Shown here one piece after another: positions 4,450-58,615 of a stretch of DNA of 64,000 nucleotides. Position numbers and translations under genes: made by a program. Source of the DNA: an uncultured Candidatus Saccharibacteria bacterium (GTDB lineage: Bacteria > Patescibacteriota > Minisyncoccia > Phycocordibacterales > UBA12088). The notes below the pieces were generated by a model. It was not told where the DNA came from, did not search any database, and saw only the letters and a program-made list of their open reading frames with translations. Position 1 is the stretch's first letter, and every line of letters starts with the position of its first letter. The DNA lies in contig CAZLUD010000002.1 of assembly GCA_964562615.1 (NCBI GenBank), positions 153,300 through 217,299 on the forward strand, written 5' to 3'.

Positions 4450-4482
4450 ACTCCCCTCCCTTACCCTTCCATATCTACATAA

Positions 4483-4519
4483 AAACAAACAGAGCGACAT
4501 GTGTCGCTCTGTTTGTTTT
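4483..4519. terminator. Bidirectional intrinsic-terminator hairpin between the convergent thrS and the giant surface-protein gene.
   Basis: aaacaaacagagcgaca-tgtg-tcgctctgtttgttt gives a perfect ~16-bp stem, with T/A-rich runs on both sides. Confidence 0.7.
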
Positions 4520-4542
4520 ATACGTACTCGTACGTACCGATA

Positions 4543-16437: not shown

Positions 16438-18471
16438 TTAAATATCAAGTGTTGCGTTACGTGCATTTGACTGGATAAATGATTTTCTGTTGGTAACATC
16501 GGTGCCCATAAGAATATCAAATATTTTATCAGCCTCACGAGCATCATCAATAGTCACCTGCTTAAGGACTCTTCGGGCGGGATCCATTGTAGTCTCCCAC
16601 AACTCACCGTAGTTCATTTCTCCAAGACCTTTGTATCGTTGAATAGAAACTTTAACCGCCTTTTTCTTCTCGTCAACAACATCAACCTCTTCTGCTTCTT
16701 CGTTTTCAGATTCTTCAAAATCCGCCTCAATCACCCCAAGAGAAACAAGAATCTTATTCTTTTCTTCATCATTATACGCGTAGTGAAGGTCCTTCCCCTT
16801 GGTGATTTTATACAATGGTGGCTGAGCAATGTAGACATGCCCCGCAGAAATAAGCTGCGGCAAGTATCGATAAAATAGAGTGAGGAATAGGGTGCGTATG
16901 TGCGCGCCGTCTACGTCGGCATCGGTAGCGATAATAATCTTGTGATATCGCAAACGAGAAATATCAAAGGTGTCTCCAATAGCGGTACCGAGCGCGATAA
17001 GTAACTCTTTTACCCCACGCGCGGTCACAATTTTATCAAGGCGTGCACGCTCTACATTTAATACTTTTCCCCACATCGGCAAAACCGCTTGTATTCTTCT
17101 GTCTCTACCCTGCTTTGCTGATCCTCCTGCAGAATCTCCCTCTACAATAAATAGCTCAGCTTCTTCTGCTGCCTTTGTCTGGCAATCAGCAAGCTTTCCT
17201 GGCAAGGTCATACCCTCGAGCATTCCTTTTCGAAGGACGGAATCTTTTGCTGCTTTTGCTGCCTTTCGCGCCTTGAGGGCAAGTATTGATTTACCAATAA
17301 TAAATCGCGCGTCATCAGGATTCTCTTCCAAGTATTCGTTAAACGCTTCTGAGAATACCGTCTCGACAGCTCCCCTTGCCTCAACTGATCCAAGCTTGGC
17401 CTTTGTCTGCCCCTCAAACTGAATCTCGCGTAGCTTTACCGATACCACTGCGGTAAGACCCTCAAGCACATCATCACCAGTAAAGTTTTCGTCCTTCTCT
17501 TTAATGAGATTATTTTTGCGTCCGTAGGTATTAAGCGTACGAGTAAGCGCCGTTTTAAAGCCGGTTATGTGCGTACCGCCTTCTGGGTTGTATATGTTGT
17601 TCGCAAAGCCAAGTATGCGTGGTGAAAAGTCATCAATATATTGAAGAGAAACTTCAACCGCGACATTATCGATTTCTTTCTCTACATAAAAAATATTTTT
17701 GTGTACTGGCTTTTGTGTGTGGTTATAAAACCGCACCAACGACTTAAGTCCGCCCTCAAAGTAAAACGACATTGACGGTACATCGAGTGCCAAGTCTCTA
17801 AACCAAAACACACTGTCAAGATCAATCTTGCCCTCATAGTCTCTGGCATCAAAAATAGAGATACGTAGCGCCTTTACTAAATACGCCTGCTGTCTGAGGT
17901 GGTCTACGATTTTATTCCATGAAAACGCTATCTCAGGAAATATCTCAGCGTCTGGCTCAAAGGTAACAATGGTGCCGTATGCTTTCGATGCTGAAACTTT
18001 CTTAACCGCCGCCTTTCTTTTGCCTCTGCTGTATTCTTGGAAAAACTTTCCTCCGTCGCGATGCACCTCAACACTCGCAAACACAGAGAGCGCATTTACA
18101 ACCGACACACCCACGCCGTGGAGTCCACCAGAAACTTTGTACCCCTCGCCACCAAATTTTCCTCCCGCATGGAGTGTGGTCATGATAGTTTCAAGCGCAG
18201 ACACTTTTGTCTGCTTGTGCATATCGACAGGAATACCGCGTCCATTGTCTGCGACGCGTATTCTATTGTTTGGCAACAACACTACTTCAATATCATTTGC
18301 ATACCCACCCATCGCCTCATCGCGACTGTTATCAAATACCTCCCAGATCAAGTGGTGAAGCCCATCAGGGCCAGTGGTACCAATATACATACCCGGTCGC
18401 TTGCGTACCGGCTCAAGCCCTTCTAGTACTTGAATGTCTTCTGCGCTGTAGTGATGTCCTTTTGCATTCAT
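16438..18471 (-). CDS. gyrB: DNA gyrase subunit B. Start at MNAKGHHYSAEDIQVLEGLE; the ORF-track start at 18513 is less likely.
   Basis: RPGMYIG; GHKL ATPase motifs (GLHGVGVSVVNALS); TOPRIM EGDSAGGSAKQGRDR; C-terminal ...NATLDI. Confidence 0.9.
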   Translation of the reverse strand: MNAKGHHYSAEDIQVLEGLEPVRKRPGMYIGTTGPDGLHHLIWEVFDNSRDEAMGGYANDIEVVLLPNNRIRVADNGRGIPVDMHKQTKVSALETIMTTLHAGGKFGGEGYKVSGGLHGVGVSVVNALSVFASVEVHRDGGKFFQEYSRGKRKAAVKKVSASKAYGTIVTFEPDAEIFPEIAFSWNKIVDHLRQQAYLVKALRISIFDARDYEGKIDLDSVFWFRDLALDVPSMSFYFEGGLKSLVRFYNHTQKPVHKNIFYVEKEIDNVAVEVSLQYIDDFSPRILGFANNIYNPEGGTHITGFKTALTRTLNTYGRKNNLIKEKDENFTGDDVLEGLTAVVSVKLREIQFEGQTKAKLGSVEARGAVETVFSEAFNEYLEENPDDARFIIGKSILALKARKAAKAAKDSVLRKGMLEGMTLPGKLADCQTKAAEEAELFIVEGDSAGGSAKQGRDRRIQAVLPMWGKVLNVERARLDKIVTARGVKELLIALGTAIGDTFDISRLRYHKIIIATDADVDGAHIRTLFLTLFYRYLPQLISAGHVYIAQPPLYKITKGKDLHYAYNDEEKNKILVSLGVIEADFEESENEEAEEVDVVDEKKKAVKVSIQRYKGLGEMNYGELWETTMDPARRVLKQVTIDDAREADKIFDILMGTDVTNRKSFIQSNARNATLDI

Positions 18472-18568
18472 ATACGTATAGTGACTAGAGTATACCACAA
18501 AACCACGCTTCATTATAGCGATAATTCATTGACTAACCCCCAAAAATACGACCTATTGCGGAGTGTAA

Positions 18569-19006
18569 TTAGCGCTTACTTGTCGCCCTTTCTGCAATAA
18601 TTAAGGTCATGGCACTTACAAGCGCCGTAACGAGTATGCCCCAAATGATATCCACAACCGTAACCACTATTGGCCAATCAGCAAGTATAGCCGCGTTGGT
18701 AAACCCATACGTGCCGTAGGCCACAAGCCCAAGCACGGCACCCCTAAATAATGCCCCGTAGGCAGATATCTTTTCGTTATGAGAAGGAATAACCGCAAGG
18801 GTAGCAATACCAATTGGGTATATCGCATAAAAGAGGAATGTGGGTAAAAGACCAATTTGTGGAGCAAGAAGATGAAATAGTGAATCCGCATAAAAGGTAG
18901 TCGCCACAATCCCAAGCCAAATACCATCCATAGTGGTAAGAAGAACAAAGGCAACCGCATACACCATCCAAAATGATAATGATTTTGTGAAAAAGAATCG
19001 TAACAT
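18569..19006 (-). CDS. Integral membrane protein (4 TM), unknown function.
   Basis: Hydrophobic ORF; no recognisable catalytic motif. Confidence 0.4.
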   Translation of the reverse strand: MLRFFFTKSLSFWMVYAVAFVLLTTMDGIWLGIVATTFYADSLFHLLAPQIGLLPTFLFYAIYPIGIATLAVIPSHNEKISAYGALFRGAVLGLVAYGTYGFTNAAILADWPIVVTVVDIIWGILVTALVSAMTLIIAERATSKR

Positions 19007-19009
19007 ATA

Positions 19010-19426
19010 TTATTCTTTGCGAATAACTCCTCCGTCTGCAGACATTCTATACACAGACAAACGCTCTCCTGTGGTAATCTCTACACGATACCCATCAACA
19101 GTGGCTTGGGTGCACATCTCATCTTTTCCTAGCCCCAGACAACCATCTGGCCATGTTCGCACCTCCGAAGAGGTGATGGTGATATCTTCAATTGCCGAGG
19201 AAGTGTCCTCAACTGCTTTAGTGAGTAGTGCTGCAAGTGCCTTATCAGGGATAGTCGCAAATTCTTCACGCTCTATAGAAGTCTCATGTACTTCTGGTAT
19301 AGATTGCTCCTCTTTTTGCTTTGCGATCATCACCCCATCAACCACATACGCTCCCCCTGCGCCAAATAGTGCTATGAGTACAATAATAGGTATCCATCTC
19401 ATGCACACAGCATACCATGGGTACAA
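19010..19426 (-). CDS. Hypothetical secreted or membrane-anchored small protein.
   Basis: N-terminal hydrophobic segment WIPIIVLIALFGAGGAYVV; two Cys near the C-terminus. Confidence 0.35.
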   Translation of the reverse strand: MYPWYAVCMRWIPIIVLIALFGAGGAYVVDGVMIAKQKEEQSIPEVHETSIEREEFATIPDKALAALLTKAVEDTSSAIEDITITSSEVRTWPDGCLGLGKDEMCTQATVDGYRVEITTGERLSVYRMSADGGVIRKE

Positions 19427-19429
19427 CTA

Positions 19430-19621
19430 TTACAGCGAGTACATTGTACCAATAGTGCTCATGAGCATTGGTACCGCAAAGACAAGTCCGATAAGCGGAA
19501 GCACAAAAAATACAATGGTAGCAATAAGTGAGTAAAGAAAGTATTTGCGAATCTTCTCTACCGACACACTCATCATGTCTATCTTATCTTCAAGCGCCTT
19601 GAGTCTATCGTTTTCTTCCAT
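19430..19621 (-). CDS. Small membrane protein (~63 aa). Trimmed to the internal ATG so that it does not overlap msrAB.
   Basis: MEENDRLKALEDKID... followed by a TM helix. The ORF-track start would overlap msrAB by 76 nt. Confidence 0.35.
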   Translation of the reverse strand: MEENDRLKALEDKIDMMSVSVEKIRKYFLYSLIATIVFFVLPLIGLVFAVPMLMSTIGTMYSL

Positions 19622-19634
19622 AGTAGGGTGATTA

Positions 19635-20798
19635 TTAATTAAACAGGGCAAGATACTCGCCATACCCCTCCTTTTCCATATCGCGCGTAGGAATAAATCT
19701 AAGCGCCGCACTGTTCATGCAATATCTAAGTCCCCCTCTGTCTTTTGGACCATCTGAAAACACGTGCCCAAGATGAGAATCTGCAAATCGTGAACGCACC
19801 TCGGTACGTGTACTAAAAAATGATGAATCATCTTTTGTCACAATAAAGAGAGGGTCTATTGGCTTAACAAATGATGGCCATCCCGTACCCGAGTCATACT
19901 TATCCCTCGATGAAAACAGCGGTTCCCCAGACACCACATCAACGTATATACCCTCTTCTTTGTTATCTGCATACTCATTTGCAAACGGTTTTTCTGTGCC
20001 ATCCTTTTGCGTTACTTTGTATGACTCCGGAGAGAGCATTCCTTGTAGTTCTGTATCACTTGGTTTTACAAAACTAGACCATGCGGTGGTAGTGGTAGGC
20101 ATATATTCTGGTGATATGTTATGTAATGTGTCTCCCCAGTACTTCTTTATAAAGGCATCTCTCCCTGATGCGTTTCTATAAAAACCGTATCTGAGTGCGT
20201 TTTCTTTATAGTAATTTTGGTGATACTCCTCAGCGGTATAAAAAGGTGCACGTGGCAATACCTCAACGGCAAGCGGTTTTTCATACACCTTTTGCGCATC
20301 TATATGCGCAAGCACGCGCATGGCAGTGTCTTTTTCATTTTCATCAGCATAGTATATCGCTGGTGAGTATGCCTTTCCTCTATCATGAAAGGATCCATCT
20401 TTATCAGTTGGGTCAATGTGCTTTATAAAATACTCAAGTAACCCCGCATAGGTGAGGACTTGTGGATTATAGGTAACCTCTACCACCTCTCTGTGGTCAT
20501 CTTTGCTGTACGTCTCGTAGGTAGGATTGCTACTAGTACCGCCACTATACCCCGACACCACACTCGCTACTCCATCTAGTTTTTCTAGATCTGCCTCTAC
20601 GCACCAAAAGCATCCACCCGCAACAATAGCAGTGCGCATATCAGAAGCTGAGTTAGTGGTGTGAGAAGTAGTATCCGAGAGCGGCATATCTTGTGTAGTA
20701 ATCATAGAAAAATTGTGTGTATAAAAATAAATACTGATGCCAACCACAACACACGCTACCGCCAGTATAATGCGTTTATTCATGGCTTGTCTTTTCAA
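19635..20798 (-). CDS. msrAB: Fused peptide methionine sulfoxide reductase MsrA-MsrB with an N-terminal membrane anchor, likely extracytoplasmic.
   Basis: MsrA GGCFWCVE motif; MsrB GTGWPSF and HLGHVF motifs; N-terminal [18 protein letters not shown]. Confidence 0.85.
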
Positions 20799-21513
20799 TT
20801 ATTTGCGCACTCTTCATTCTTTCTTTTCGCTCACCTTGATACAGAAAAAACGAGTATAGTACGGTAATGACTACCGTACTCATAAGCGGGTAGAAAAATA
20901 GTGCAAACGAATACTGTGGTGCAAAAAGCGCAAGCATACTTATTGCCCCCGAAAACATAAACAAATCTGACGCAAGCAAATGGGTTTTGTCCCACACCGT
21001 ATCACTTGAAAGAGTCCACGGCGTACGGACTCCCATAAACCAATTTCTCCTAGCAAACCTCAGTTCGTACCCAATGATGATAAAAAGGATACCAAGTGGC
21101 GGTACTATCGCACGTGACATAGCAAACTCATACCCCATATTCCATACCAGCACGAGCGCGTGGATGTACGTAAGAAAGGCGATGATAGCAAGGACCACCA
21201 TATTGTAGTGGGGTCGAAACTTTTCAACATTATCCTTAAATGGATCTATGCGGGGGAGCAAAAACAGCACGCCAGAGAGTATTACTGAAAGCAGCGGAAT
21301 AATAAGAAGCGCAAACAGTCGCGGAGTAAACGAATCCGCCTCCCCTGCAACAGTAAAATGAGTTGCCATCTGTTCAGGAAGCTGGTCATACAACAACACC
21401 CCAGATCCTATAGTGATAAGAATCAAGATACCGATGCATGTATAGGTAAGTGTAGTACTCACCCCACTATCATAACCCAAGTGAGTCTGTGTGTCTTTTA
21501 TGTATTCCACCAA
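20776..21513 (-). CDS. SdpI/YhfL-family membrane protein (DUF1648 + SdpI).
   Basis: [22 protein letters not shown] motif; 6 TM. Confidence 0.65.
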
Positions 21514-21516
21514 TTA

Positions 21517-22239
21517 CTATTTAACCAAAAAGGTAGCCCTTACCGTGATCATCACTTCTTTCTCTATAGTAGAAGTATCGTACATACCATAATCAGCAAC
21601 ATCAATAGAATTATTCTGGAGCACCTGCACCACACCACCCTGCGCGCTCTTCAACTTTCCTACTGATTGTCCGCTTGCGCTTGCTATTTCATTTGCGCGA
21701 GCTTCCGCATCTTTTACCGCGTCAGAAAGTAACGAGACTCTCAGTTCTGGAAGTGTCGATATATAGTACTCTGGCATCATAGGAGAAAACTGCACTGCAC
21801 GCTGCGCAAGCACCACGGTATTGCTGGCAAGTGATTCAATAAGCTCTACTGAGTCGCTCTCTACGGTAACTAGCTGCCTCACAGTCACCTTTCGTGGACC
21901 TTCATTTGTCCAATACTCATCAACTGCTATAGCGCCTTTGGTGATCGCCTCTTCTGGTACTCCCCCTTCGGTAAGAAAGGTCGCCACCTTTGCGCTATCA
22001 CGCGCTACTTCGCTATATGCATTTGCTAGTTCGTAATCATAGACAATTCTGTTTACGGCAATTGCCCACTTGGCAGTATCTGCTGTTGCAACCTGCGTTG
22101 CTGAGCCGGTAACAGAAAGCGTGTTATCAAGTGATCGCACCGCATAAAAGGTATAACTAAACACAAATGCGCACAGCACTAACGAACCCCCCACAATAAC
22201 TGCCGGCAAAGAAACTAATTTGTAGTCTGTTGTAAACAT
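21517..22239 (-). CDS. SIMPL-domain (DUF541) protein with an N-terminal anchor.
   Basis: SVTGSATQVATADTAKWAIAV..RQLVTVESDS resembles the YggE/SIMPL fold. Confidence 0.55.
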   Translation of the reverse strand: MFTTDYKLVSLPAVIVGGSLVLCAFVFSYTFYAVRSLDNTLSVTGSATQVATADTAKWAIAVNRIVYDYELANAYSEVARDSAKVATFLTEGGVPEEAITKGAIAVDEYWTNEGPRKVTVRQLVTVESDSVELIESLASNTVVLAQRAVQFSPMMPEYYISTLPELRVSLLSDAVKDAEARANEIASASGQSVGKLKSAQGGVVQVLQNNSIDVADYGMYDTSTIEKEVMITVRATFLVK

Positions 22240-22601
22240 ATACAGCTAGTATACACGCAATAATTCACCCTGCACATGCTATGCAAATCAGTACATGAGT
22301 TATAACTCTATTCATCATGTGTGACCTTGATCACAAGAGTGCTTGGATGTATCATTCCCTCAGAAGATGACTCTACACTCAGTTCTCCTAGTGCCGGAAT
22401 GAGCCGATCGAGAAGTCAGTCGCCAAAACTACCTGTCTTGATCAGTTCACTACCGACTCACTGGTTGCAGGTGAGTAGTCCGAGCCCGACGTGTATCAGC
22501 ACGTCGGGCTCTTTAACTAATATGTATTACTGACACACCTCACGATTCTACCTTCGTGTTTGATTGATAATCTAACCAAGACTTATTCTTTAGTATTCTA
22601 A

Positions 22602-24242
22602 TTACCCCGTATACGTTGCGCGGGCGAGGGAGAGAGTGTCGAAGTCGTAGACTTCTTTGAGGTGTGTATACACGGGGGTTAGTTTTTCAGTGCCGAGTTT
22701 TTTAAAGGCGCTATGGATGTGTGCCAAATCGTCCGCATCAAAAAGTGCAGAGAGCGTAGCCATGTCAGCGGCAAGCAATGCTCCTTTTTTATTGAGAGCA
22801 TCAAGGTGTCCAATAATAGTACGCACTGTCATGCCACGCGCTTTTGCTATCTCAGCAGGCGTCTTTCCGGTTCGGAGTAATTGCAGTGTTTCTTCAGTGG
22901 TAGATAGTTTTTTCTTGCTTTTTTGAGGAGAGAGTCCCACTGTGCCGCCCATGGCGGTGATTGATCGCACGTGAAGCGTGTCTATTTCTTCCTTACTCAT
23001 ACTCATAAACATACGGCGCGCTTGATGAGACTCTTCCTTTACCACCGCATCAGTATCACGCACGAGCGGATGTACCTCGAGCGCTCGTTCGTTAAATCCA
23101 ACAAGATACAGTCCCTCTATTGTCCTAATACGTGAAAGTGCGACGTATCCCTGCCCGTATTCAAATGCTTTACTCAAATCAATATACGCCGCATCAAGAC
23201 TCATACCCTGGCTTTTGTGTATAGTAATAGCCCACGCAAGGCGCAGTGGTAACTGTGTTACTTTAGCAAGTACCTTTCCCTCTTCTTCAAGCGTCCATTC
23301 CATAAATGGCACGTCAATCGTTTTGCCATCGCGGGTTTTAACCACCGGCACGCCATCACGCCTAAATGCCTCAACAACTCCAAGAGTACCGTTCGCAAAT
23401 CCTTCTTCGGGATTGTTTTTGGTAAACATCACCGCGGCACCCTTTTTTATCACAAGCTCAGCAGGTGAGAGGCATCCTTTTTTAATTGCTTCAATATGAT
23501 GTGGTGAGCCTTTCTCAGTCATGCGAAAACGCTTTGCATCTCCTGGTAGCGCGGTAAGCGTTGCATCATTCATGGAGTCTACATCAGCGTTGTGGGTAAA
23601 CAGTTTAGGAATATGTCCTGAGTCAGGTATCACTTGCCTACTCTCTAATACATTCATGATTCGTGCTGTCTTGGTACCTGTACGAATGTGTGACAGTAGC
23701 TCTGTGAGCGCCTCATCCACATGTCGGTGTTGTTCATCTAAATAGCAGACCACGGGGTTAGCCGCACTCCACGCATCAGCGGTAAAGGCAAATTCGGCAT
23801 GTTCACCAATTGGTGGTAATTGAAAAAAATCTCCAACAAATATTACCTGCACACCGCCAAAAGGAAGTGGGTTACCCCGAGCGGTAATAAGTATGGCATT
23901 TACTGCATCAAGCACACCACGCGGAAGCATGGATATTTCGTCAATAATAAGAACGGTGGCTTTTTTCAGGCGCTTCACTACCCGCTCACGTTCTAAAATA
24001 GTATCAATGTCGTATTTTGACACAGAGGACTTAGTGCCCACGCCAGACCATGCGTGTATGGTCATTCCATGAAGGTGGGTTGCCGCAATGCCCGTTGAAG
24101 CAGTAACAGAGGGCTCTATACCTCTATCACGCAAGTATCTAATATACTCCCGAATTGTGTGTGTCTTCCCTGACCCTGGCTCCCCTGTCAAAAATACATT
24201 TGAGCCGGTTTTGAGAATAGTAAGTGCTTCAGCTTGCGTCAT
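22602..24242 (-). CDS. PIF1/RecD-like superfamily-1 DNA helicase with a C-terminal HTH domain.
   Basis: Walker A GEPGSGKT; PIF1-like AWSGVGT and VIFVGDFFQLPPI motifs; C-terminal HTH LRTGKTPAEIAKARGMTVRTIIGHL. Confidence 0.8.
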   Translation of the reverse strand: MTQAEALTILKTGSNVFLTGEPGSGKTHTIREYIRYLRDRGIEPSVTASTGIAATHLHGMTIHAWSGVGTKSSVSKYDIDTILERERVVKRLKKATVLIIDEISMLPRGVLDAVNAILITARGNPLPFGGVQVIFVGDFFQLPPIGEHAEFAFTADAWSAANPVVCYLDEQHRHVDEALTELLSHIRTGTKTARIMNVLESRQVIPDSGHIPKLFTHNADVDSMNDATLTALPGDAKRFRMTEKGSPHHIEAIKKGCLSPAELVIKKGAAVMFTKNNPEEGFANGTLGVVEAFRRDGVPVVKTRDGKTIDVPFMEWTLEEEGKVLAKVTQLPLRLAWAITIHKSQGMSLDAAYIDLSKAFEYGQGYVALSRIRTIEGLYLVGFNERALEVHPLVRDTDAVVKEESHQARRMFMSMSKEEIDTLHVRSITAMGGTVGLSPQKSKKKLSTTEETLQLLRTGKTPAEIAKARGMTVRTIIGHLDALNKKGALLAADMATLSALFDADDLAHIHSAFKKLGTEKLTPVYTHLKEVYDFDTLSLARATYTG

Positions 24243-24260
24243 ACGAGTAGTCTACCATGA

Positions 24261-24767
24261 CTACATTAGACCAAGTTTTCGCCAAAACGAGAGGAGTGTC
24301 TCTGAAGACACTACCCGCCCTACTCCTTCAGCATTTGTATATTCAGGATCGTGATAGAAATAATCTTTTTTGTGTCGCCCCACTATCACCACCTGGTGAT
24401 ACTTATCACGTAGCGCTTCATCAAACCTGCGAGATACTGAAACAATAACTGGCATTCCACGTTCAAGTGCCTCATCCAAAAAATCCAATACTCGCTCATC
24501 AGAGTATTCTTTGATATCAAATCGATTGATGCTCACGTCAAATGAGTTAGCTACCTCGATAAGCTTGTCATGTACCCATCCAGATGGCCCAAATGCATTT
24601 ATGCGTAGCGCGCGAGCGAGCACTTCATCAGGAGAAATATTCTCTTTGCGATGGTAGGCAATAAGCATAGAGAGTGCCGCGATACCGCACGCACGCGGCT
24701 TCCACTCAATGTCAGTAATATGGTCATACTGTGAATAATATGGAACGATAAGTGTCGCTTCTTTCAT
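24261..24767 (-). CDS. Papain-like C39-type peptidase domain protein, last gene of the pheS-pheT operon.
   Basis: PYYSQ...CGIAALSML (Gln/Cys of C39-like peptidases); later YHQVVIVG His region. Confidence 0.55.
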   Translation of the reverse strand: MKEATLIVPYYSQYDHITDIEWKPRACGIAALSMLIAYHRKENISPDEVLARALRINAFGPSGWVHDKLIEVANSFDVSINRFDIKEYSDERVLDFLDEALERGMPVIVSVSRRFDEALRDKYHQVVIVGRHKKDYFYHDPEYTNAEGVGRVVSSETLLSFWRKLGLM

Positions 24768-24768
24768 G

Positions 24769-27114
24769 TTATCTAACGGTATGTCCTAGACTGGTGAGTG
24801 TGTTAGTGATGGCGGTCATACGCTCAAGAATTTCACTATCGGTAAGTGTTTTGGTGCGAGACAAAAACACCAATCGATACGCGTATGATACCTTGCCTTC
24901 CTTTTCAAATTGATCAAACAAATCAATGCGTGCAAGCAATGCTCCTGCCTGTGTACGAATTATGTCTTCTATCTCAAAAGATGAGACCTCATTAGGTACC
25001 CATAGGGCAATATCTCGAAGGGCAAATGGATACTGAGATATAGGCTGATATCGCACGTCATCAGTCTCTTTCAAAAAATCATACGCGACATCTTCGGGTA
25101 TAGTGACATCAGTAATGTCATACTCCACTACGTTGTCTGATTGATGTACCGCGGCGATATCACCTATCACTTCTTGTATACTCTCTGCACCTTCTTCAAG
25201 CATGGTGCGTAGTGTCGCTTCTCGCTTTTTTTGTGTTGTTTCAGCTGCGTATGCAACATGAAGCCGCTCTCCTTCTTTACTAAAGACAATACCAATTTCA
25301 AATATCATAATGTCACTACCTCCCCACAATGGCGCGTGCGGGAGATTCTTTTTTGCCGTAAGGGCGAGTGTCTCGTGTAGTGATTCTCGCAAATGTGATT
25401 TGTCTGAGGCAAGCGCGTTTTTAAGTTCTACCGCTCCTTTATCAAGTAGCGTAGAGGTGATGACTTCATTCCATCCACGTGCAACAAACGCTGCGCGAAG
25501 TCGGTGTGCAATATAGTGATGTGGGTGCGGTACAACCGGCCCATCAAATGGTGGTAACGTGGCAGATGCAATTGCTCGATATCCAGCTATTCTTCCAATC
25601 TCCTCAATAACATCTTCTCTGATACGGATGTCTCTGCGTTCAGCAGGTACAGCAATAACAAATCGCTCATCCTCAGTACCCAACCCCAACATAGAGCGGT
25701 ACCCAACAATGGTAGTAAATCGCTCACTTGTTTGTAGTGGTTCCATCACCACACCGCTACCACCTGTGGAGTGGAGCACCATACCATCTCCCATATAGAT
25801 ACCAACATGATCAACACCAACGGGGACCTTGGTACCCTTTTTGTATTCGATGCTTTCGTAATGAATGGTACCAACACCGGTGTTCGCAAACACCAAATCA
25901 CCAGGCTGAGGGTCAGTGACCTCTGTGCCAAACACATATTGATCTACCGACATACGTGGGATAGCAACCCCACTCATTGCGTACACATATGCCGTAAGTG
26001 ATGAACAATCAAATGTCTCTGGCGCATCGTACCGTATACGCGCGCCAAGCTTGTACGCCTTACCAAGGAGTGTTGGTGCATGCGCGCAGATATGCTGACG
26101 CGGCGCTATTACTTCAAAAGGAAGCTGCGCCCTTGTGAGTAAGGCAACTACTTCTTCTTTGGTGTACGACGTACCAAGGAGTGCATGTATCTCACGCAGT
26201 GAGACGCCTACTTTGTAGGGTGCAGGTAGAGGTACTTCTTGTATCGCCTCACCCACAAGCGTACCCGAAGCTATATCCATAATAAGAGAAACCACTTCAC
26301 GAAGGGCAATGGCAGTGAGTTCGATTGGTGGTTGGTTTTGAAAACGAACAGACGCATCAGTAGCAAGCTTTAATCGTTGTGAGGTTGCGCGTATTGATGC
26401 GTAGTTAAAGTGCCCCGCTTCAACCAAAATAGTTTTTGTGTTTGTATCCACCTCTGCGTGCTTGCCGCCTTTGACGCCTGCTATCCCTATTGGAGTGCTT
26501 GTCACCGCATCATAGATTAGCAGCGTGTCCTTGTTTAGCGTGTAGGTATCACCCGTAAGGGTGGTGATAGATTCGCCATCTTTTGCAGATTGAACCGCTA
26601 GGTTGTACTTCCCTTGTTCATCTTTACCAAGCTTGTCTGCATCAAATGCATGCAGTGGTTGTCCAAGCTCATACATGACATAGTTTGTCGCATCTACGAC
26701 ATTATTGATGCTTTTTTGTCCAAGACGAGTAAGATACTGCCGCAGCCACTCGGGCGATGGTTCAACAGACACCCCTTCAAGAAGCGCTATACGATATGAA
26801 TCACACAGTGAAGGCGACTCAACCGCAACACGCACTCTATCTGTAGCAGGTAGTAGTTGCGGGTGTGGTTGTCGTAGTGGATCTTTTACAAGTGGTATCG
26901 AGAGTATTACAGAGAGCTCACGAGCAATACCAAGGTGACACAGGCAATCACCTGATCTGTTTGCAAGTACATCAACATCAATTATGTCATCGCCATCAAC
27001 ATGAGCTACTCCCTCAATTTCAAATGAGTGAAAGGTGAGTAGTTCAACAAGCTTCTCGCTTGATGGAAGCGTGTCGGCAAAATAGGTCTGAAGCTGAGCG
27101 CGAGAAACTTTCAT
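24769..27114 (-). CDS. pheT: Phenylalanyl-tRNA synthetase beta subunit with a ~145-aa NlpC/P60 papain-like domain inserted inside the B5 domain.
   Basis: B3/B4 NNVVDATNYVMYELGQPLHAFD; B5 halves ..LREIHALLG..LPFEV and ERFVIAVPAERRDIRIREDVIEEIGRIAGY; C-terminal FDX-ACB. Insert: FDCSSLTAYVY...GDLVFAN...DHVGIYMGDGMVLHS (C, H, H triad). Confidence 0.85.
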   Translation of the reverse strand: MKVSRAQLQTYFADTLPSSEKLVELLTFHSFEIEGVAHVDGDDIIDVDVLANRSGDCLCHLGIARELSVILSIPLVKDPLRQPHPQLLPATDRVRVAVESPSLCDSYRIALLEGVSVEPSPEWLRQYLTRLGQKSINNVVDATNYVMYELGQPLHAFDADKLGKDEQGKYNLAVQSAKDGESITTLTGDTYTLNKDTLLIYDAVTSTPIGIAGVKGGKHAEVDTNTKTILVEAGHFNYASIRATSQRLKLATDASVRFQNQPPIELTAIALREVVSLIMDIASGTLVGEAIQEVPLPAPYKVGVSLREIHALLGTSYTKEEVVALLTRAQLPFEVIAPRQHICAHAPTLLGKAYKLGARIRYDAPETFDCSSLTAYVYAMSGVAIPRMSVDQYVFGTEVTDPQPGDLVFANTGVGTIHYESIEYKKGTKVPVGVDHVGIYMGDGMVLHSTGGSGVVMEPLQTSERFTTIVGYRSMLGLGTEDERFVIAVPAERRDIRIREDVIEEIGRIAGYRAIASATLPPFDGPVVPHPHHYIAHRLRAAFVARGWNEVITSTLLDKGAVELKNALASDKSHLRESLHETLALTAKKNLPHAPLWGGSDIMIFEIGIVFSKEGERLHVAYAAETTQKKREATLRTMLEEGAESIQEVIGDIAAVHQSDNVVEYDITDVTIPEDVAYDFLKETDDVRYQPISQYPFALRDIALWVPNEVSSFEIEDIIRTQAGALLARIDLFDQFEKEGKVSYAYRLVFLSRTKTLTDSEILERMTAITNTLTSLGHTVR

Positions 27115-27115
27115 A

Positions 27116-27826
27116 CTAAAATTGTGTCACTAGTCGCAGGTCGCCATAATGAAATAGTCGTACGTCTTCAATGCCGTACTTAACTGCAACCAGACGCTCT
27201 ATTCCTGCCCCAAAGGCAAAGCCCTGATATAGCTCTGGATCAAGTCCTGCATTTTTAAGCACGGTTGGATGCACCATCCCCGCCCCCATAACCTCAAGCC
27301 AACGTTCAGTACCGTCCTTTTTCTTTAGATACATATCCACCTCGACACCGGGCTCAACAAAAGGAAAGTACCCAGGGCGAAACCTCACCGGAACGGATGC
27401 TCCATAAAACTCACTAAAGAATTGTTCAAGGGTACCCTTAAGATGCGCAAGCGTCACCGCCCCCTTCTTATCAATAACAAGTCCTTCAACCTGAAAAAAC
27501 TGTGCTTCATGCGTTGCGTCGGTTGCTTCATTTCTGTAGACGCGCCCCGGCACAATAATCCGTATTGGTGGGGTGTGTGTTTCCATATACCTAATCTGTA
27601 CCGGTGAGGTGTGTGTGCGTAATACAGTCTCTTCTCTATCTTTAACAAAAAAGGTATCTTGCGCGTCTCTCGCGGGATGATTTTTTGGCACATTAAGGGC
27701 ATCAAAGTTATACCACTCACTTTCTATAATTGGACCCTCCGCAAGGGTAAATCCCATACCAGAAAAAATCTCCGTGATGCGAGATATTGCCATCGATATT
27801 GGATGTACGTGTCCCTTTTCCTTCAT
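27116..27826 (-). CDS. pheS: Phenylalanyl-tRNA synthetase alpha subunit, short form. Start at the ATG giving MKEKGHV; the ORF-track start is a GTG.
   Basis: Class II motifs FRPGYFPFVEPGVEVD and GAGMVHP. Confidence 0.9.
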   Translation of the reverse strand: MKEKGHVHPISMAISRITEIFSGMGFTLAEGPIIESEWYNFDALNVPKNHPARDAQDTFFVKDREETVLRTHTSPVQIRYMETHTPPIRIIVPGRVYRNEATDATHEAQFFQVEGLVIDKKGAVTLAHLKGTLEQFFSEFYGASVPVRFRPGYFPFVEPGVEVDMYLKKKDGTERWLEVMGAGMVHPTVLKNAGLDPELYQGFAFGAGIERLVAVKYGIEDVRLFHYGDLRLVTQF

Positions 27827-27974
27827 GTGTAAGAAGTATAGCAAAAATGTCACATTTGGCGACTTTACAATACATCATCATATGATAAGCGCGCAGTTTT
27901 TTACCAAGGTGACAAATCTGATTTTGTTATTACAAGCCTCGCTTTTTTGGTAGTTTCTGCTACAGTTTATAGTA

Positions 27975-29219
27975 ATGAGTGGAGTAATCGAGGCGCTCAT
28001 GTACATATTCCTCTTCACCACCCTCTATTTTGAGGTGTTTCTCCTATTGGCATTTTTAGAGCGAGGAAAGGGTACCGACAAAGGCGAGGACGCGCCCGAG
28101 CTTACCCGCTACCCGCACGTCTCAATTATCGTACCTGCCTTCAATGAAGAGCAAGCGGTTATAGATACAATTCACTCTCTTCTTAATCTTAATTACCCAA
28201 AGCATAAGCTGTCTATCATTGCCGTTGATGACGGAAGTACCGACGACACTTGGCAAAAACTGCAAGCCTTCAGTAGTCATCCGATGGTCACTCTTCTCCG
28301 AAAAGAAAACGGGGGCAAACACACCGCACTCAATCTCGGTATTAAAGACTGCAAGAGTGAGCTTATTGGATGCCTGGATTCAGATTCTACGGTCCACAAA
28401 GACGCGCTTCGCTACATAGTGAGAGAGTTCTTGCTTAACGAAAAAGTTGACGCAGTCACCCCCGCTATGCGCATACAATCACCGCGCACCATACTTGAAA
28501 GAGTACAAGCGGCAGAATACACCCTAGGTATTTTTATGCGCAGGACCTTTTCATTCATGAATACCCAGATAGTTACCCCGGGGCCATTTTCGCTATTTCG
28601 TCGCTCCACCTTTGAAAAATTGGGCCCCTACAAAAAGGCGCACAACACCGAGGATCTTGAGTACGCGCTTCGTATCCAAGCATCACAAGGCCAGATCGCT
28701 AATGCGCCACACGCGCTCGTATACACACCCGGTAAGCGCGGTCTCTCTAACCTTCTTAACCAGCGAGTACGTTGGACCTATGGTTTTTTAAGAAATGCCC
28801 GCGACTACAAGCATCTCTTTTTTAACAAAGCGTATGGTGATTTGAGCTTTTTTGTACTTCCTAGCGCACTCCTTGCTATTGGGAGCGCAATCACACTTGC
28901 CGTCCTAAGCCTTTACACCTTTGGTATGAATATCGCAGAGAGAATAGCGCAATACTACTATGGCGGATTTAATTTTTCGTTTGGCATAAACTGGTTTTTC
29001 ATCAATACGGACGCGCTCATTTTTGTCATCGTAGTAGTACTCACCCTTACCCTATCGCTTATGATTCTTGGATTTGCGTTGGCGCGTGACAAGGTAAATC
29101 CAATCAACATAGGCGCCTACTTTGCTCTCTATGGACTCATTGCCCCGTTGTGGCTAGCACAGGCAGTAATACGAGTACTGCTAAAACGAGAATCAAGTTG
29201 GCAGCAAGAGCGCTCATAA
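27975..29219 (+). CDS. Family-2 processive glycosyltransferase (NodC/PgaC/cellulose-synthase-like), membrane-integrated.
   Basis: VSIIVPAFNE, DDGSTDDT, CLDSDS and QRVRW (QxxRW); N-terminal and C-terminal TM helices. Confidence 0.8.
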   Translation: MSGVIEALMYIFLFTTLYFEVFLLLAFLERGKGTDKGEDAPELTRYPHVSIIVPAFNEEQAVIDTIHSLLNLNYPKHKLSIIAVDDGSTDDTWQKLQAFSSHPMVTLLRKENGGKHTALNLGIKDCKSELIGCLDSDSTVHKDALRYIVREFLLNEKVDAVTPAMRIQSPRTILERVQAAEYTLGIFMRRTFSFMNTQIVTPGPFSLFRRSTFEKLGPYKKAHNTEDLEYALRIQASQGQIANAPHALVYTPGKRGLSNLLNQRVRWTYGFLRNARDYKHLFFNKAYGDLSFFVLPSALLAIGSAITLAVLSLYTFGMNIAERIAQYYYGGFNFSFGINWFFINTDALIFVIVVVLTLTLSLMILGFALARDKVNPINIGAYFALYGLIAPLWLAQAVIRVLLKRESSWQQERS

Positions 29220-29231
29220 TCCCTAAACTCT

Positions 29232-29906
29232 ATGCGAGAAACTAATCTAACCAGATACATATCGGCATTCCTTATTACGGGAACAATATTTGCTACTGCC
29301 TTTTACGTGAGCAATAACCTTAATCAAAAGCGTATAGAGCAAATACGCCAAATTGAGGAGAAGATTTCCGTTGATATTCTTTCTCTTGAAACACAGTTTG
29401 ACCTGCTTGAACAACTCTCCTGCAACCAAATAAAAGAAAACCCTGTTCTCTCGCAAGAGCTTCAGGGGCTAGCCGACAGACTACAGTACGCAGAAGAAGA
29501 GCTTGGTACAGATGACGAGCGTGTTATTGAGCTAAAAAAATCTTACTCTCTGCTCCTTATAAAGGACGCCGTCTTGATGGAGCGTGTTAAAGAAAAATGT
29601 GACATCACCCCAATCGTGATGTACTACTTCTATTCAAATGAAGGTGACTGTGAGGATTGTACCAAGCAAGGCTATGTACTTACCCGCATAGGTAGAGAGT
29701 ACCCTGCTGCTCGTATTTATGCCTTTGACTACAACCTCGACCTCTCTGCGCTACGCACCCTTATCGCTATTCATGAGGTGAAAAACACCCTTCCTGCACT
29801 CATTATTGATGATGTCGTTCATTATGGATTTAATGATTTTGAAACTCTTCAAGAGCGTATACCGTCGCTAGTAGCAACCACCACCGCTACATCAACCGAG
29901 CGATAG
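29232..29906 (+). CDS. Membrane-anchored hypothetical protein with a coiled-coil and a possible thioredoxin-like CxxC (CEDC) region.
   Basis: N-terminal TM; PIVMYYFYSNEGDCEDCTKQGYVL. Confidence 0.3.
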   Translation: MRETNLTRYISAFLITGTIFATAFYVSNNLNQKRIEQIRQIEEKISVDILSLETQFDLLEQLSCNQIKENPVLSQELQGLADRLQYAEEELGTDDERVIELKKSYSLLLIKDAVLMERVKEKCDITPIVMYYFYSNEGDCEDCTKQGYVLTRIGREYPAARIYAFDYNLDLSALRTLIAIHEVKNTLPALIIDDVVHYGFNDFETLQERIPSLVATTTATSTER

Positions 29907-29911
29907 TGTGG

Positions 29912-30409
29912 CTATGCTTTAGGGGTTGCGTTTATTTCTCTCTCTGCTCGTTCTGCAAAAGCAAGAAAATCTGCTATCTCTTCTACTGTCATTGTTTTTG
30001 GTGTGTCACCCTTTATACAAAACACTCCCACTGCTTTGCCTGTTGCCTGATCATACAAAGACTTACCCGCATAAAATCGAACATACGGCTCTCCTAACAC
30101 CATAGGATTATCTTTGAAACGATCATCCAATAGCGTGTCGGGGACTACAAGCATTACTTCAGAAATAAGCGCATGTCCACAGAATGAGGTTGCTCGTGGT
30201 GCCTCCTTTTCAGTAAGGCCTTGTACGGATTTGTACCATTCTCTACCCTCATCAACTAACGTAATGGTAGATATGGGGACAGAAAATCTTGCCACCGCCT
30301 CTCTGGTTATTCGATCAAATCGCTCTTCATTTGAGGTATCAAGTAGTGATAACCCATGAAGTGCACACAAACGCTCCTTCTCATCCCTTGGTAAAGGTGC
30401 ATGTAACAT
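29912..30409 (-). CDS. Stand-alone GAF domain protein.
   Basis: GAF-like pattern ...VPISTITLVDEGREWYKS...FCGHAL...VPDTLLDDRF... Confidence 0.6.
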   Translation of the reverse strand: MLHAPLPRDEKERLCALHGLSLLDTSNEERFDRITREAVARFSVPISTITLVDEGREWYKSVQGLTEKEAPRATSFCGHALISEVMLVVPDTLLDDRFKDNPMVLGEPYVRFYAGKSLYDQATGKAVGVFCIKGDTPKTMTVEEIADFLAFAERAEREINATPKA

Positions 30410-34317: not shown

Positions 34318-34782
34318 CTACCACAACCGTGCTGCTGGGGTATAAATCGCGCCTGTTCTTTGGCCGGTTCTTGCAGGATCCTGTAGCGGGCAAGATCCGG
34401 GGGTACATGCTTCAAGGGCTCCGTGGATAAGTATCTTGTAGTCAACTCCATTAGAGTAGTAGAGATAACAAATACCACTACTTGCCGTACTTGGGAGTGG
34501 GTCCATTGGCATACTAGAAATGTAGGTAGGTACAATACCCGGAATACCAGCGCCACCATAACAGCCAGGACTAGTTCCTTGCCACCCACCCACGACAGGA
34601 TAGTTTCCAAAATCGTTATAGTACATTTCAACTGCTCTTTCTATTTGGCGTACGTCAGCAATACGCCGAGCGTCTCTAGCTTTACCACGCGCACTATTAA
34701 GTGACGCAAACACTACTGAGGAAAGAAGTCCTATGATCGCAATGACGACAAGTAGTTCAATAAGGGTAAATCCTCTTTTCAT
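34318..34782 (-). CDS. Type IV pilin-like protein (prepilin N-terminal cleavage/methylation domain).
   Basis: MKRG|FTLIELLVVIAIIGLLSSVVFASLNSAR. Confidence 0.8.
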   Translation of the reverse strand: MKRGFTLIELLVVIAIIGLLSSVVFASLNSARGKARDARRIADVRQIERAVEMYYNDFGNYPVVGGWQGTSPGCYGGAGIPGIVPTYISSMPMDPLPSTASSGICYLYYSNGVDYKILIHGALEACTPGSCPLQDPARTGQRTGAIYTPAARLW

Positions 34783-34797
34783 AAATAAAGTAATGTA

Positions 34798-35274
34798 CTA
34801 GTAACCCCGAGCTCCGGTAGACCAATTACCATACGCCCAACAATCTCTCACTGGGTCTATAAGTCCTGGTGCTTGCGCCTTTACCCCCGCGCAATCTTGA
34901 GGATTATGCCAAATGAGTTTGTAGTCAGCTCCATTGTCTGAACGATAAATATAATTATCACTACAATTAGTAGAATTATTTGGTGACCGAGGGAGTGTAG
35001 GGATATAGTTTGGAGCAAGTCCTGGTATCCAGTTTGTCGTACTGTTGCCCCAGCAGGTATACAACCCGTCATATCTCCCCGATGTGCTTGGGTACGCATT
35101 ATTGTCGTTATAATACAATTCTAGTGCTATTTTTAGCTGCTCAAGATCTGCGATACTTCGAGCATTTCGAGCTTTTTGTCGTGCACTATTAAGTGACGCA
35201 AACACCACCGAAGAGAGTAGTCCGATAATAGCAATCACAACAAGTAGTTCAATGAGGGTGAATCCTCTTTTCAT
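34798..35274 (-). CDS. Type IV pilin-like protein.
   Basis: MKRGFTLIELLVVIAIIGLLSSVVFASLNSARQKARNAR. Confidence 0.8.
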   Translation of the reverse strand: MKRGFTLIELLVVIAIIGLLSSVVFASLNSARQKARNARSIADLEQLKIALELYYNDNNAYPSTSGRYDGLYTCWGNSTTNWIPGLAPNYIPTLPRSPNNSTNCSDNYIYRSDNGADYKLIWHNPQDCAGVKAQAPGLIDPVRDCWAYGNWSTGARGY

Positions 35275-41384: not shown

Positions 41385-41898
41385 CTAGCGTTCAAAGCCT
41401 CCTAAGACATAATCAAATTCTCCTTGCCAGTATCGTGATGGACAACTCCATCCAGGTGAATCTGGGTGTGGGTTAGGAGATGTCTCCATGTCCCGTACCC
41501 CAAGTACAAAATATGCCCCACGAGCACTATCGCACCCTGCATAGCCCGCTGGGTACCGGTAGTAATTGTATCCTTGGCAGTCAGCAGTAAATCCCTCGTC
41601 GATGGGCACTCTCCCTCCAAAATAGGTGTCCATACCCCTTCCGTTAAGTAGTGGGTATGTACGGTTGCCATTATCCCACCCACCGCATCCATCAAAATCT
41701 GAATCTGGGTAGGCGTTATAATCTGAATAATACAACGCGAGCGCTTTTACGATTTCTTGAATCTCTGCCAATCGTGCGGCATCTCGTGCCTTTGTGCGCG
41801 CACTATTAAGCGAGGCAAATACCACCGATGAAAGTAGTCCGATGATGGCGATAACCACAAGTAGCTCAATGAGGGTAAACGCACCGCTTATGCTTCAT
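41385..41898 (-). pseudogene. Type IV pilin-like gene with a +1 frameshift between its ATG (MKHKR.., 41898..41896) and the conserved pilin body (..AFTLIELLVVIAIIG.., which starts with GTG at 41858 in the ORF track).
   Basis: ATG AAG CAT AAG CGG runs into TGA in frame. The FTLIELLVV frame is offset by one nucleotide, consistent with a single extra base near cggTgcg. Confidence 0.55.
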
Positions 41899-42593: not shown

Positions 42594-43100
42594 TTATCGC
42601 GAACAAACGGCGTAATTCATATTATACCCTGGGTTAACTGGTACTGTGGCAAAACGAGCAGTATCCTCAGGAGTAGGACTTTCAAGCTGTGCGTACACGC
42701 ACACACTCGTCTGTGATCCATATGGGTGATAAATCATGTAATGATTGCCAGGATCTGGATGCTTTATTTCACCTGATGTAAAACCTGCGTTCATAAGTGC
42801 TCTTGAAACAGACAATGCATAGCTTCCAGTGTCTTGATAATCAAACCAACCACATGAGCATCCCTGCCACCCTGACCCAGCAACTTGAAATGTATTATAC
42901 GTATCATAATACAATTGGAGCGCAGTCATTGCCTGCGAAAGATCTTGCTTTCGCTTTGCATCTCGCGCCTTTCCACGAGCACTATTAAGCGACGCAAATA
43001 CCACCGATGAAAGTAGCCCGATGATGGCGATAACCACGAGTAGCTCAATGAGGGTAAATCCTTTTTTGTTTTTTGCGCGCTGTTGATAATAGGTAAACAT
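42594..43100 (-). CDS. Type IV pilin-like protein.
   Basis: MFTYYQQRAKNKKG|FTLIELLVVIAIIGLLSSVVFASLNSARGKARDAKR. Confidence 0.8.
   Translation of the reverse strand: MFTYYQQRAKNKKGFTLIELLVVIAIIGLLSSVVFASLNSARGKARDAKRKQDLSQAMTALQLYYDTYNTFQVAGSGWQGCSCGWFDYQDTGSYALSVSRALMNAGFTSGEIKHPDPGNHYMIYHPYGSQTSVCVYAQLESPTPEDTARFATVPVNPGYNMNYAVCSR
42955..43061. repeat. ~107-nt segment (pilin 5' end) nearly identical to 44476..44582.
   Basis: tttgcatctcgcgcctttccacgagcactattaagcgacgcaaataccaccgatgaaagtagcccgatgatggcgataaccacgagtagctcaatgag... with 3-4 mismatches against the second copy. Confidence 0.8.
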
Positions 43101-58492: not shown

Positions 58493-58511
58493 ACCACTAC
58501 ATACTACCACA

Positions 58512-58541
58512 AACGAAAAAGCCCCCGAAGGGGCGTTTTCG
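58512..58541 (-). terminator. Intrinsic terminator after the Wzy_C/TPR gene.
   Basis: gaaaaagcccc-cgaa-ggggcgttttc (10 bp, one mismatch); the minus strand has a TTTTTCGTTTG tail. Confidence 0.55.
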
Positions 58542-58615
58542 TAGATTTTCTTGGAAGCCTCACAACTTTCGAGGCACTCACAAAAGAAGTATAGCAGACA
58601 AATCGTAAATGTCAA

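Follow-up and report, generated by a model that had tools for sequence, protein, structure and literature searches.

A peptidase domain within the B5 hairpin of PheT

A complete NlpC/P60 papain-like domain is lodged in the B5 beta-hairpin of an otherwise intact PheT, the beta subunit of phenylalanyl-tRNA synthetase (PheRS). The gene lies in a 64,000-nucleotide stretch of CAZLUD010000002.1 (GCA_964562615.1), here called the window, whose positions are used throughout. A first-pass annotation made from the letters alone had placed such a domain between the two halves of B5 at 25669-26106. These coordinates turned out to be exact, and a chance resemblance is excluded by the HMM E-values, the structural match and the conservation of the domain in hundreds of homologues. 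We favor, with some hesitation, the reading that the domain is an autonomous cytoplasmic peptidase which PheT merely carries and which acts with a C39-like enzyme on peptidoglycan-derived peptides containing gamma-D-Glu.

The pheT open reading frame (ORF) was described at the outset as continuous, and 24769..27114 is indeed uninterrupted over 781 aa. The proposed hidden Markov model (HMM) check was run and matched NLPC_P60 (PF00877) at PheT aa 351-463 (E=8.3e-16), where it scored 58.3 bits and the gathering threshold is 23; matches to B5, B3_4 and FDX-ACB were obtained as well. The quoted motifs FDCSSLTAYVY, GDLVFAN and DHVGIYMGDGMVLHS were all found in the insert, and the nucleophilic Cys and two His that they were said to contain make up the triad C370-H436-H448. 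The insert runs from A337 to D482, with the junctions ...FEVI/APRQ and ...GTED/ERFV. When PheT was compared with the PDB using phmmer, residues 44-334 aligned to Thermus thermophilus PheT 155-436 and residues 483-621 to 440-586. Residues 436-440 are contiguous in the T. thermophilus protein, and the insert, of about 146 residues, takes the place of about 3 in the turn of the B5 hairpin. The Pfam B5 match, at aa 477-512, covers only positions 29-67 of the 67-position profile.

Structure prediction, another of the suggested checks, gave a confident papain-like domain flanked by B5 strands. The full-length AlphaFold model has a mean predicted local distance difference test (pLDDT) score of 92.8, with values of 94-98 across the insert. 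In this model, the first half of B5 consists of a strand at 301-305, helices at 306-313 and 319-328, and a strand at 333-336; this last strand and the one at 484-488 flank the inserted domain.

The host protein retains most domains of a PheRS beta subunit

Apart from the insert, Pfam matched B3_4 at aa 104-282 (E=6.9e-51), the catalytic-like module (CLM; tRNA_synthFbeta) at aa 524-623 and FDX-ACB at aa 693-777. The expectation that all the usual PheT elements would be present held for B3/B4, B5 and FDX-ACB and failed for the N-terminal region, which is without B2: no Pfam match to PF01588 (tRNA_bind, the oligonucleotide-binding fold of B2) was found in PheT. The protein also scores 382.7 with the TIGR00472 PheT equivalog model, for which the cut-off is 402.65. 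B2 is dispensable and often missing from PheT proteins of the candidate phyla radiation (CPR) (PMC5370408), and therefore neither the missing domain nor the low score is an argument against PheT orthology. Foldseek matched the full-length model to PheRS beta chains with E about 1e-48.

The editing site was compared by phmmer alignment, in which H155, E232, T252 and A254 correspond to T. thermophilus H261, E334, T354 and A356. Across the family, H155 and T252 never vary, and E232 is kept in >=90% of sequences. Judged by alignment, the canonical B3/4 editing residues are intact in the form of PheT with the embedded domain, which indicates that the peptidase does not stand in for an editing site that has decayed. 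No segment of PheT is more conserved than the second half of B5. The product of pheS, the gene upstream, matches tRNA-synt_2d over aa 10-245 (E=2.3e-95, Pfam) and is aligned by TIGR00468 at profile positions 67-322 only. Taken as a whole, the host protein has kept the appearance of a functional PheRS beta subunit, with all domains but B2 present and a place in a pheS-pheT operon. Except for the insert, the PheRS of the window is pared down, the alpha subunit being without its N-terminal coiled coil and the beta subunit without B2. The coiled coil of the alpha subunit contacts tRNA in T. thermophilus.

The insert resembles cell-wall DL-endopeptidases

The insert modeled alone reached a pLDDT of 95.8. 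Its best Foldseek match was 7cfl, the catalytic domain of the Clostridioides difficile autolysin Acd24020 (template modeling score 0.88, root mean square deviation 1.6 A, 36% identity), and a profile of the insert family matched the same structure with E=1.2e-27. The further matches of the model (4hpe, 4xcm, MepS, YkfC 3h41, CwlO and LytE) are all peptidoglycan DL-endopeptidases, and the insert matched NlpC/P60 families and structures only. The predicted structure is thus that of a p60-type gamma-D-Glu endopeptidase, closest to wall DL-endopeptidases and outside the YkfC subfamily.

The triad occurs in the canonical, non-permuted order, together with a conserved Y354. Conservation was counted in 324 distinct sequences, made up of 246 with the embedded domain and of 62 stand-alone and 16 fused derivatives that are described below. 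Cys370 is kept in 245/246, 62/62 and 16/16 of these, respectively, His436 in 244/246, 62/62 and 16/16, and His448 in 232/246, 59/62 and 16/16, and the Cys-His dyad is conserved in >99% of the embedded sequences. The insert is conserved like the rest of PheT, with a mean top-residue frequency of 0.62, compared to 0.64 for B3/4 and 0.63 for FDX-ACB.

Two features set the family apart from classical p60 enzymes. The beta-hairpin directly before the catalytic His (NTGVGTIHYESIEYKKGTKVPVG) is about 14 residues longer and appears as a gap in alignments to 7cfl and 4xcm. Its conserved positions are E420, S/T421, E423, G427, T428 and G433, with model strands at 418-420 and 429-434. The loop preceding Cys370 is 4 residues longer. 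No signal peptide was found on PheT or on the stand-alone, fused and C39-like proteins.

The architecture is spread across a clade

An alignment with orthologues had been proposed, and it showed that the insert is lineage-wide, occurring in >240 distinct Parcubacteria/Paceibacteria PheT proteins from independent assemblies. PF00877 lies between the same PheT domains in every one of the best 120 homologues, which are 748-825 aa long and 39-98% identical. Named sources among them are Kaiserbacteria, Campbellbacteria, Yonathbacteria, Paceibacterota and metagenome-assembled genomes (MAGs) of Patescibacteria. A scan of GTDB species representatives, in which the query was a 6-sequence alignment of the insert, gave 125 confirmed matches, and 80 loci were kept. 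The NlpC segment lies between the N- and C-terminal parts of PheT in all of these 80 except L080 and L026, the latter being cut by a contig end, and pheS is upstream wherever the flank is sufficient. Dozens of metagenome contigs show this architecture as well. When a profile was run against 1.8 billion cluster representatives, at least 198 clusters matched at E<=1e-30; most are 730-840 aa long and are matched near residues 330-490. Several short or odd-length matches (P0257, P0265 and P0246) have the look of truncated gene calls, and the interpretation leaves them out. In the databases, such proteins are labeled "phenylalanine--tRNA ligase beta subunit-related protein," "C40 family peptidase," "NlpC/P60 family protein" or "lipoprotein Spr."

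The closest relative, L008/L001 (CAYPBQ010000004.1, GCA_964409035.1), has a PheT 76% and a PheS 97% identical to those of the window. It is titled "uncultured Candidatus Saccharibacteria bacterium," as are many other MAGs with the insert. The specifically named carriers are all Parcubacteria (Yonath-, Campbell-, Kaiser-, Lloyd-, Terry-, Vogel-, Nomura-, Wolfe- and Azambacteria), and the Saccharibacteria title was probably assigned generically by a pipeline.

The module also occurs apart from PheT

In L080, a 384-aa gene joins the catalytic core of PheS to an FDX-ACB domain at the C-terminus, and the next gene (4057-4713), of 218 aa, encodes nothing except the first half of B5, the NlpC/P60 domain and the second half of B5 (B5a-NlpC-B5b); a C39-like gene and then gyrB follow. 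The same pairing of a single-chain PheRS with a B5a-NlpC-B5b gene of 200-228 aa and an intact triad was seen in L080, L088, L089, L091-L099, L119, L144 and L169. About 85 clusters of B5a-NlpC-B5b proteins of 190-241 aa were found, named Minisyncoccia, Wolfebacteria or Parcubacteria, with the triad and the B5 remnants conserved. The stand-alone module adjoins the single-chain PheS+FDX gene in 15/16 loci, usually with a stop/start overlap. In L090, the NlpC and C39-like genes are adjacent, and there is no PheRS gene within the 4-kb flanks examined. In the stand-alone form, the B5 residues D501 and E504 are replaced by N and K; going by the UniProt annotation, we take the residues at these positions to share Mg2+ with the alpha subunit.

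The single-chain PheRS scored below the cut-offs of two models, TIGR00469 (pheS_mito; 238-240 against 258) and NF051887 (SrmL "mystery ligase"; 255 against 300). The NCBIfam model "PheS-related mystery ligase SrmL" has the same layout of catalytic module (CAM) plus FDX-ACB. According to a 2010 review, monomeric PheRS of the CAM+B8 type was known from mitochondria only (PMC3275996).

A third form is a fusion. Sixteen distinct proteins of 391-399 aa, 39-73% identical to P0313, have the layout B5a-NlpC-B5b-C39_2, and all of them carry the S369/S387 variant of the Asp-Arg pair discussed below. In the three fusion contexts known, there is no PheRS gene and a CAP-domain gene lies upstream; genes for Peptidase_S11 (the DD-carboxypeptidase family) and Glycos_transf_4 are nearby in 2/3.

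The fused peptidase also occurs as a separate gene, starting 1 nt past the pheT stop in the window. Its product matches Peptidase_C39_2 (Pfam, E=2.1e-10, 41.7 bits against a threshold of 24) and has the invariant residues Q13, C27, H124 and D140. Other matches are weak, namely 3erv (E=2e-6), NCBIfam Mplas_Cys_pep and PA2778 (about 1e-4), DUF3335 and C70. An HMM search of the loci with enough flank placed the C39-like gene downstream of pheT, on its strand, in 43/67 from GTDB and 28/43 from metagenomes, at a median gap of 25-54 nt. The same neighborhood is present in a complete 811-kb Campbellbacteria genome. Thus, the module is separable from PheRS, and it is linked to the C39-like peptidase as a neighbor or by fusion. 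The stand-alone and fused forms indicate that the module can do without the B3/4, CLM and anticodon-binding parts of PheT. The natural deletion that the stand-alone gene represents, together with the "Rosetta-stone" fusion, argues for selection on the peptidase module itself, with the C39-like peptidase as its likely functional partner.

The putative substrate pocket

In Bacillus cereus YkfC, the S1 site for gamma-D-Glu is formed by Tyr226, Trp228, Asp237, Ser239 and residue 257, which is small, and Asp237 forms a network with Arg255; in the YkfC subfamily, Tyr118 of the SH3b domain and the acidic residue 256 bind L-Ala at its free amine (PMC2954226). Four of the five S1 residues are retained in the insert as Y354 (243/246), D369, S371 (239/246) and S/A/T389 (241/246). 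D369 and R387, the Asp-Arg pair, co-vary strictly, being D,R in 100 sequences, S,S in 12 and N,R in 9. The YkfC markers are absent, as there is no SH3b domain to supply Tyr118 and position 388, equivalent to Asp256, is Met, Ile or Val. These counts show that the catalytic and S1 residues are conserved; an activity, a substrate and a division of labor with the C39-like enzyme are what we infer, as set out next.

A proposed autonomous peptidase and the alternatives

The scenario that we tentatively prefer would begin in an ancestor of a large Parcubacteria/Paceibacteria clade, in which a p60-type NlpC/P60 cysteine amidase may have been gained in the B5 hairpin turn and the insertion fixed. The inserted domain would be a folded, catalytically competent Cys370-His436-His448 hydrolase that is cytoplasmic and autonomous, with PheT as carrier, and it would cooperate with the C39-like cysteine peptidase encoded directly downstream. 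The enzyme would be acylated by, and would then hydrolyze, an amide bond with a gamma-D-glutamyl group on the acyl side, and the C39-like enzyme would cut a second bond. The outcome may be a cytoplasmic breakdown or recycling of peptidoglycan-derived stem peptides, yielding amino acids for organisms unable to make them. The moonlighting hydrolase, one of three explanations offered in the first-pass annotation, is the one favored by these results: the triad is kept, and the module survives as a separate gene and fused to the C39-like peptidase without PheRS. The window encodes MurB, and hence the organism makes peptidoglycan. In Chlamydia, another bacterium with a reduced genome, a cytoplasmic NlpC/P60 enzyme recycles peptidoglycan peptides (PMC9928106). 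Gamma-D-glutamyl chemistry appears most likely because the S1 pocket is retained and the similarity is exclusively to DL-endopeptidases, and because of MurB and the Chlamydia precedent.

Several points weigh against this proposal. Position 356, equivalent to Trp228, is variable (Y/L/R/S), and the S2 site is unlike that of characterized enzymes. The conserved extra hairpin beside the catalytic His may form a different leaving-group site. The Tyr, Asp and Ser of the S1 site also belong to the general catalytic scaffold of the family, and their retention is no proof of gamma-D-Glu specificity. Without the restriction of YkfC to peptides with a free L-Ala, a gamma-D-Glu endopeptidase could attack the precursors of peptidoglycan, the uridine diphosphate (UDP)-MurNAc-peptides. 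About 35% of the pheT genes have no C39-like gene beside them. The near-constant adjacency of the stand-alone module to a PheRS gene could reflect a lasting functional tie rather than inherited order. Our confidence is limited by the variable S2 site, the hairpin, the missing YkfC safeguards and the third of loci without a C39-like gene.

The autonomy from PheRS and the coupling to C39_2 would fit equally well if the NlpC/C39 pair were a cytoplasmic peptidase, amidase or acyl-transferase with a substrate other than peptidoglycan and PheT a mere carrier. Candidate roles are the scavenging of oligopeptides, the removal of glutamyl or isopeptide protein modifications and the processing of a small peptide. 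The lack of conservation at position 356, the family-specific hairpin at the active site, the absence of the YkfC determinants and the weak similarity of the C39-like partner to characterized proteins (3erv, DUF3335, C70) all point in this direction. Yet the S1 residues of gamma-D-Glu enzymes are retained with a co-varying Asp-Arg pair, the closest relatives in sequence and structure are all peptidoglycan DL-endopeptidases, and cell-wall genes are found in 2/3 fusion-gene contexts. We regard a non-peptidoglycan substrate as less likely than the first scenario and still a serious rival to it.

An action on the products of PheRS was also considered. The insert would then be a thiol hydrolase or transferase of mis-acylated, D-aminoacyl- or N-blocked tRNA(Phe), or a regulator coupling translation to cell-wall status, and in the single-chain PheRS lineages it would have become a trans-acting factor after the loss of B3/4. 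Papain-like enzymes are able to hydrolyze esters, and the module sits physically inside a synthetase subunit, in the domain after the editing domain. A B5-NlpC remnant beside a single-chain PheRS without B3/4 in about 15/16 loci fits a trans-acting replacement, and both B5 halves are retained and conserved in that remnant. Against this stands the intact editing site of the embedded form, where no replacement is needed, and the fusion lineage and L090, in which the module is away from PheRS genes and paired with another peptidase. The module is acidic, with a mean net charge of -5.2 when embedded and -3.3 when stand-alone, which is unfavorable for tRNA binding, and the B5 residues presumed to share Mg2+ are half kept in the stand-alone form. 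The insert has no homology to the known editing folds (B3/4, CP1, INS/YbaK, AlaX and DTD), and we know of no editing factor with an NlpC/P60 fold. An editing or tRNA-deacylating module had been among the original suggestions. The papain-like fold behind that suggestion is present, and the function is disfavored by the B3/4 residues, the acidic character of the module and the ability to work unlinked from PheRS. On balance, we consider an action on PheRS products improbable.

Finally, the domain might be catalytically dead, as a pseudo-enzyme or scaffold; it might have been inserted neutrally or selfishly; or it might be an artifact of assembly or of a frameshift. Large lineage-specific insertions are common in CPR proteins, and the TIGR00472 score of the host protein falls just under the cut-off. 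The triad and S1 residues are conserved across the 324 distinct sequences, the domain is kept where the rest of PheT has been lost, the ORF is continuous, and the architecture recurs in many independent assemblies, all of which argue against these readings. The selfish insertion proposed earlier was not borne out: Pfam found no Hint or endonuclease domains in PheT, the insert junctions have no meaningful direct or inverted repeats, no break in GC content or skew occurs across the insert, there are no intein or homing features, and the insert is retained across the clade. An assembly chimera was ruled out by the continuous ORF and the presence of the same architecture in hundreds of independent assemblies. 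The pseudo-enzyme, selfish-element and artifact readings are effectively excluded.

Comparison with known systems

The canonical PheRS beta subunits of T. thermophilus (1PYS/2IY5), Escherichia coli (3PCO) and Staphylococcus haemolyticus (2RHS) have B1, the B3/4 editing residues, B5, the catalytic-like module, FDX-ACB and the pheS-pheT operon in common with the window. They differ in that nothing is found in the B5 hairpin of the solved structures, whereas the PheRS of the window has a 146-residue NlpC/P60 domain there and is without B2 and the coiled coil of the alpha subunit. The p60-type DL-endopeptidases (7CFL, LytE, CwlO, MepS and T. thermophilus 4XCM) have the fold and the Cys-His-His triad in common with the insert at 35-36% identity, along with the motifs PY.xGA...DCS, PR..DQ, GDLVF and HVGIY..G..IHA. 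They are secreted with SH3b or LysM wall-binding domains, in contrast to the insert, which is without a signal peptide and nested in a cytoplasmic synthetase. YkfC, or dipeptidyl-peptidase VI (B. cereus 3H41 and Chlamydia YkfC), is an intracellular NlpC/P60 enzyme that acts, or is proposed to act, on stem peptides, and its S1 Tyr, Asp, Ser and small residue are found in the insert as well. Unlike YkfC, the insert has no SH3b domain and no equivalent of Asp256, and a specificity for peptides with free L-Ala is not assured.

In E. coli glutathionylspermidine synthetase/amidase, a cytoplasmic papain-like amidase of the CHAP type is fused at the N-terminus to an ATP-dependent ligase, and both act on the same metabolite. 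The insert differs from this arrangement in being nested within a domain, and on the present evidence its substrate and that of the host enzyme are probably unrelated. The mitochondrial monomeric PheRS (PMC3275996) has the same single-chain layout of CAM and FDX-ACB as the sister lineages that keep the B5-NlpC remnant. Those lineages, which are relatives and not the organism of the window, differ from mitochondria in being bacterial and in having a peptidase remnant alongside the enzyme.

In the full-text literature, no description was found of an NlpC/P60 domain in PheT, of its stand-alone or fused derivatives, or of a bacterial single-chain PheRS. Few known proteins are as conserved as aminoacyl-tRNA synthetases, and to our knowledge the catalytic domains so far found inside these enzymes are editing domains. 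Here, a whole class of ultra-small bacteria that depend on hosts carries a cysteine peptidase of the cell-wall type inside an essential subunit of a synthetase. The three natural variants (embedded, stand-alone by a single-chain PheRS, and fused to a second peptidase) show which parts belong together and are ready constructs for biochemistry. Should muropeptide recycling be correct, it would point to how bacteria without amino-acid biosynthesis gather building blocks; an action on tRNA, if real, would place the domain in an editing class of its own. How the architecture of the mitochondrial enzyme can arise is a question on which the bacterial single-chain PheRS has a bearing.

The locus and its surroundings

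The features of the window and of the related loci are collected in Table 1. The pheT gene starts 1 nt past the pheS stop. No Rfam family was detected in window 22000-30000 (no T-box and no pheST leader), neither the window nor 90 related loci contained a second NlpC/P60 copy, and PADLOC gave no defense match for PheT or the C39-like, stand-alone and fusion proteins.

Table 1. Positions of the genes, domains and residues discussed in the text
Feature	Sequence	Positions	Strand	Details
pheS	window	27116..27853	(-)	PheRS alpha subunit, <=245 aa (probably ~236), catalytic core alone, without N-terminal coiled coil
pheT	window	24769..27114	(-)	781 aa, ATG start, PheRS beta subunit with inserted peptidase
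B1 + B3/B4 editing domain	window	26245..27114	(-)	aa 1-290; B2 absent
B5, first half	window	26107..26232	(-)	aa 295-336, strand-helix-helix-strand, ends ...LPFEVI
Inserted NlpC/P60 (MEROPS C40) papain-like domain	window	25669..26106	(-)	aa 337-482
Catalytic nucleophile Cys370, codon	window	26005..26007	(-)	motif FDCSS
Family-specific beta-hairpin	window	25816..25884	(-)	aa 411-433
Catalytic His436, codon	window	25807..25809	(-)	motif VDHVG
Third triad residue His448, codon	window	25771..25773	(-)	motif VLHS
B5, second half	window	25579..25668	(-)	aa 483-512, ERFVIAVPAERRDIRIREDVIEEIGRIAGY
Catalytic-like module (B6/7) + FDX-ACB anticodon-binding domain (B8)	window	24772..25578	(-)	Pfam
C39-like gene (Peptidase_C39_2-like cysteine peptidase)	window	24261..24767	(-)	168 aa
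Large ORF	window	4543-11319	(-)	2258 aa, signal-peptide-like N-terminus
Pilin-like paralogues	window	34318-34782, 34798-35274, 41385-41858, 42594-43100, 44088-44621, 45729-46259		shared N-terminus KRGFTLIELLVVIAIIGLLSSVVFASLNSAR
850-aa protein	window	56063-58615	(-)	LCAT/lipase-like alpha/beta-hydrolase domain
721-aa protein	window	58616-60781	(-)	O-antigen-ligase-like (Wzy_C) with tetratricopeptide (TPR) repeats
Single-chain PheRS	L080	2903-4057		379-426 aa (all loci), occupying the usual pheS position
Single-chain PheRS	L088, L089	2856-4004
Single-chain PheRS	L091-L096, L119, L144, L169
Fusion gene	L171	4001-5194		proteins of the fusion lineage: P0313, P0381-P0394, P0346
Fusion gene	L173	6001-7200
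Fusion gene	L174	6001-7182

In most relatives (L003, L005, L006 and many others), gyrB comes directly after pheT and the C39-like gene. In the window, about 6 kb of other genes (16438-24242) separate gyrB from this pair. One intervening gene (22602-24242) encodes a PIF1-like helicase that has HTH_40 as its C-terminal domain; the others encode a SIMPL/DUF541 protein, an SdpI-like membrane protein and an MsrA-MsrB fusion. The PIF1 helicase is also present in the closest relative, L001.

Upstream of pheS, at 27975-29906, the window encodes a family-2 glycosyltransferase (chitin/cellulose-synthase-like, 414 aa) and a 224-aa conserved membrane protein without a Pfam match. This pair is divergent from pheS in the window and on the same strand in some loci, and it is syntenic in many, those with a single-chain PheRS included. 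Further away, at least 6 small paralogues with a near-identical type-IV-pilin-like N-terminus are dispersed among housekeeping genes.

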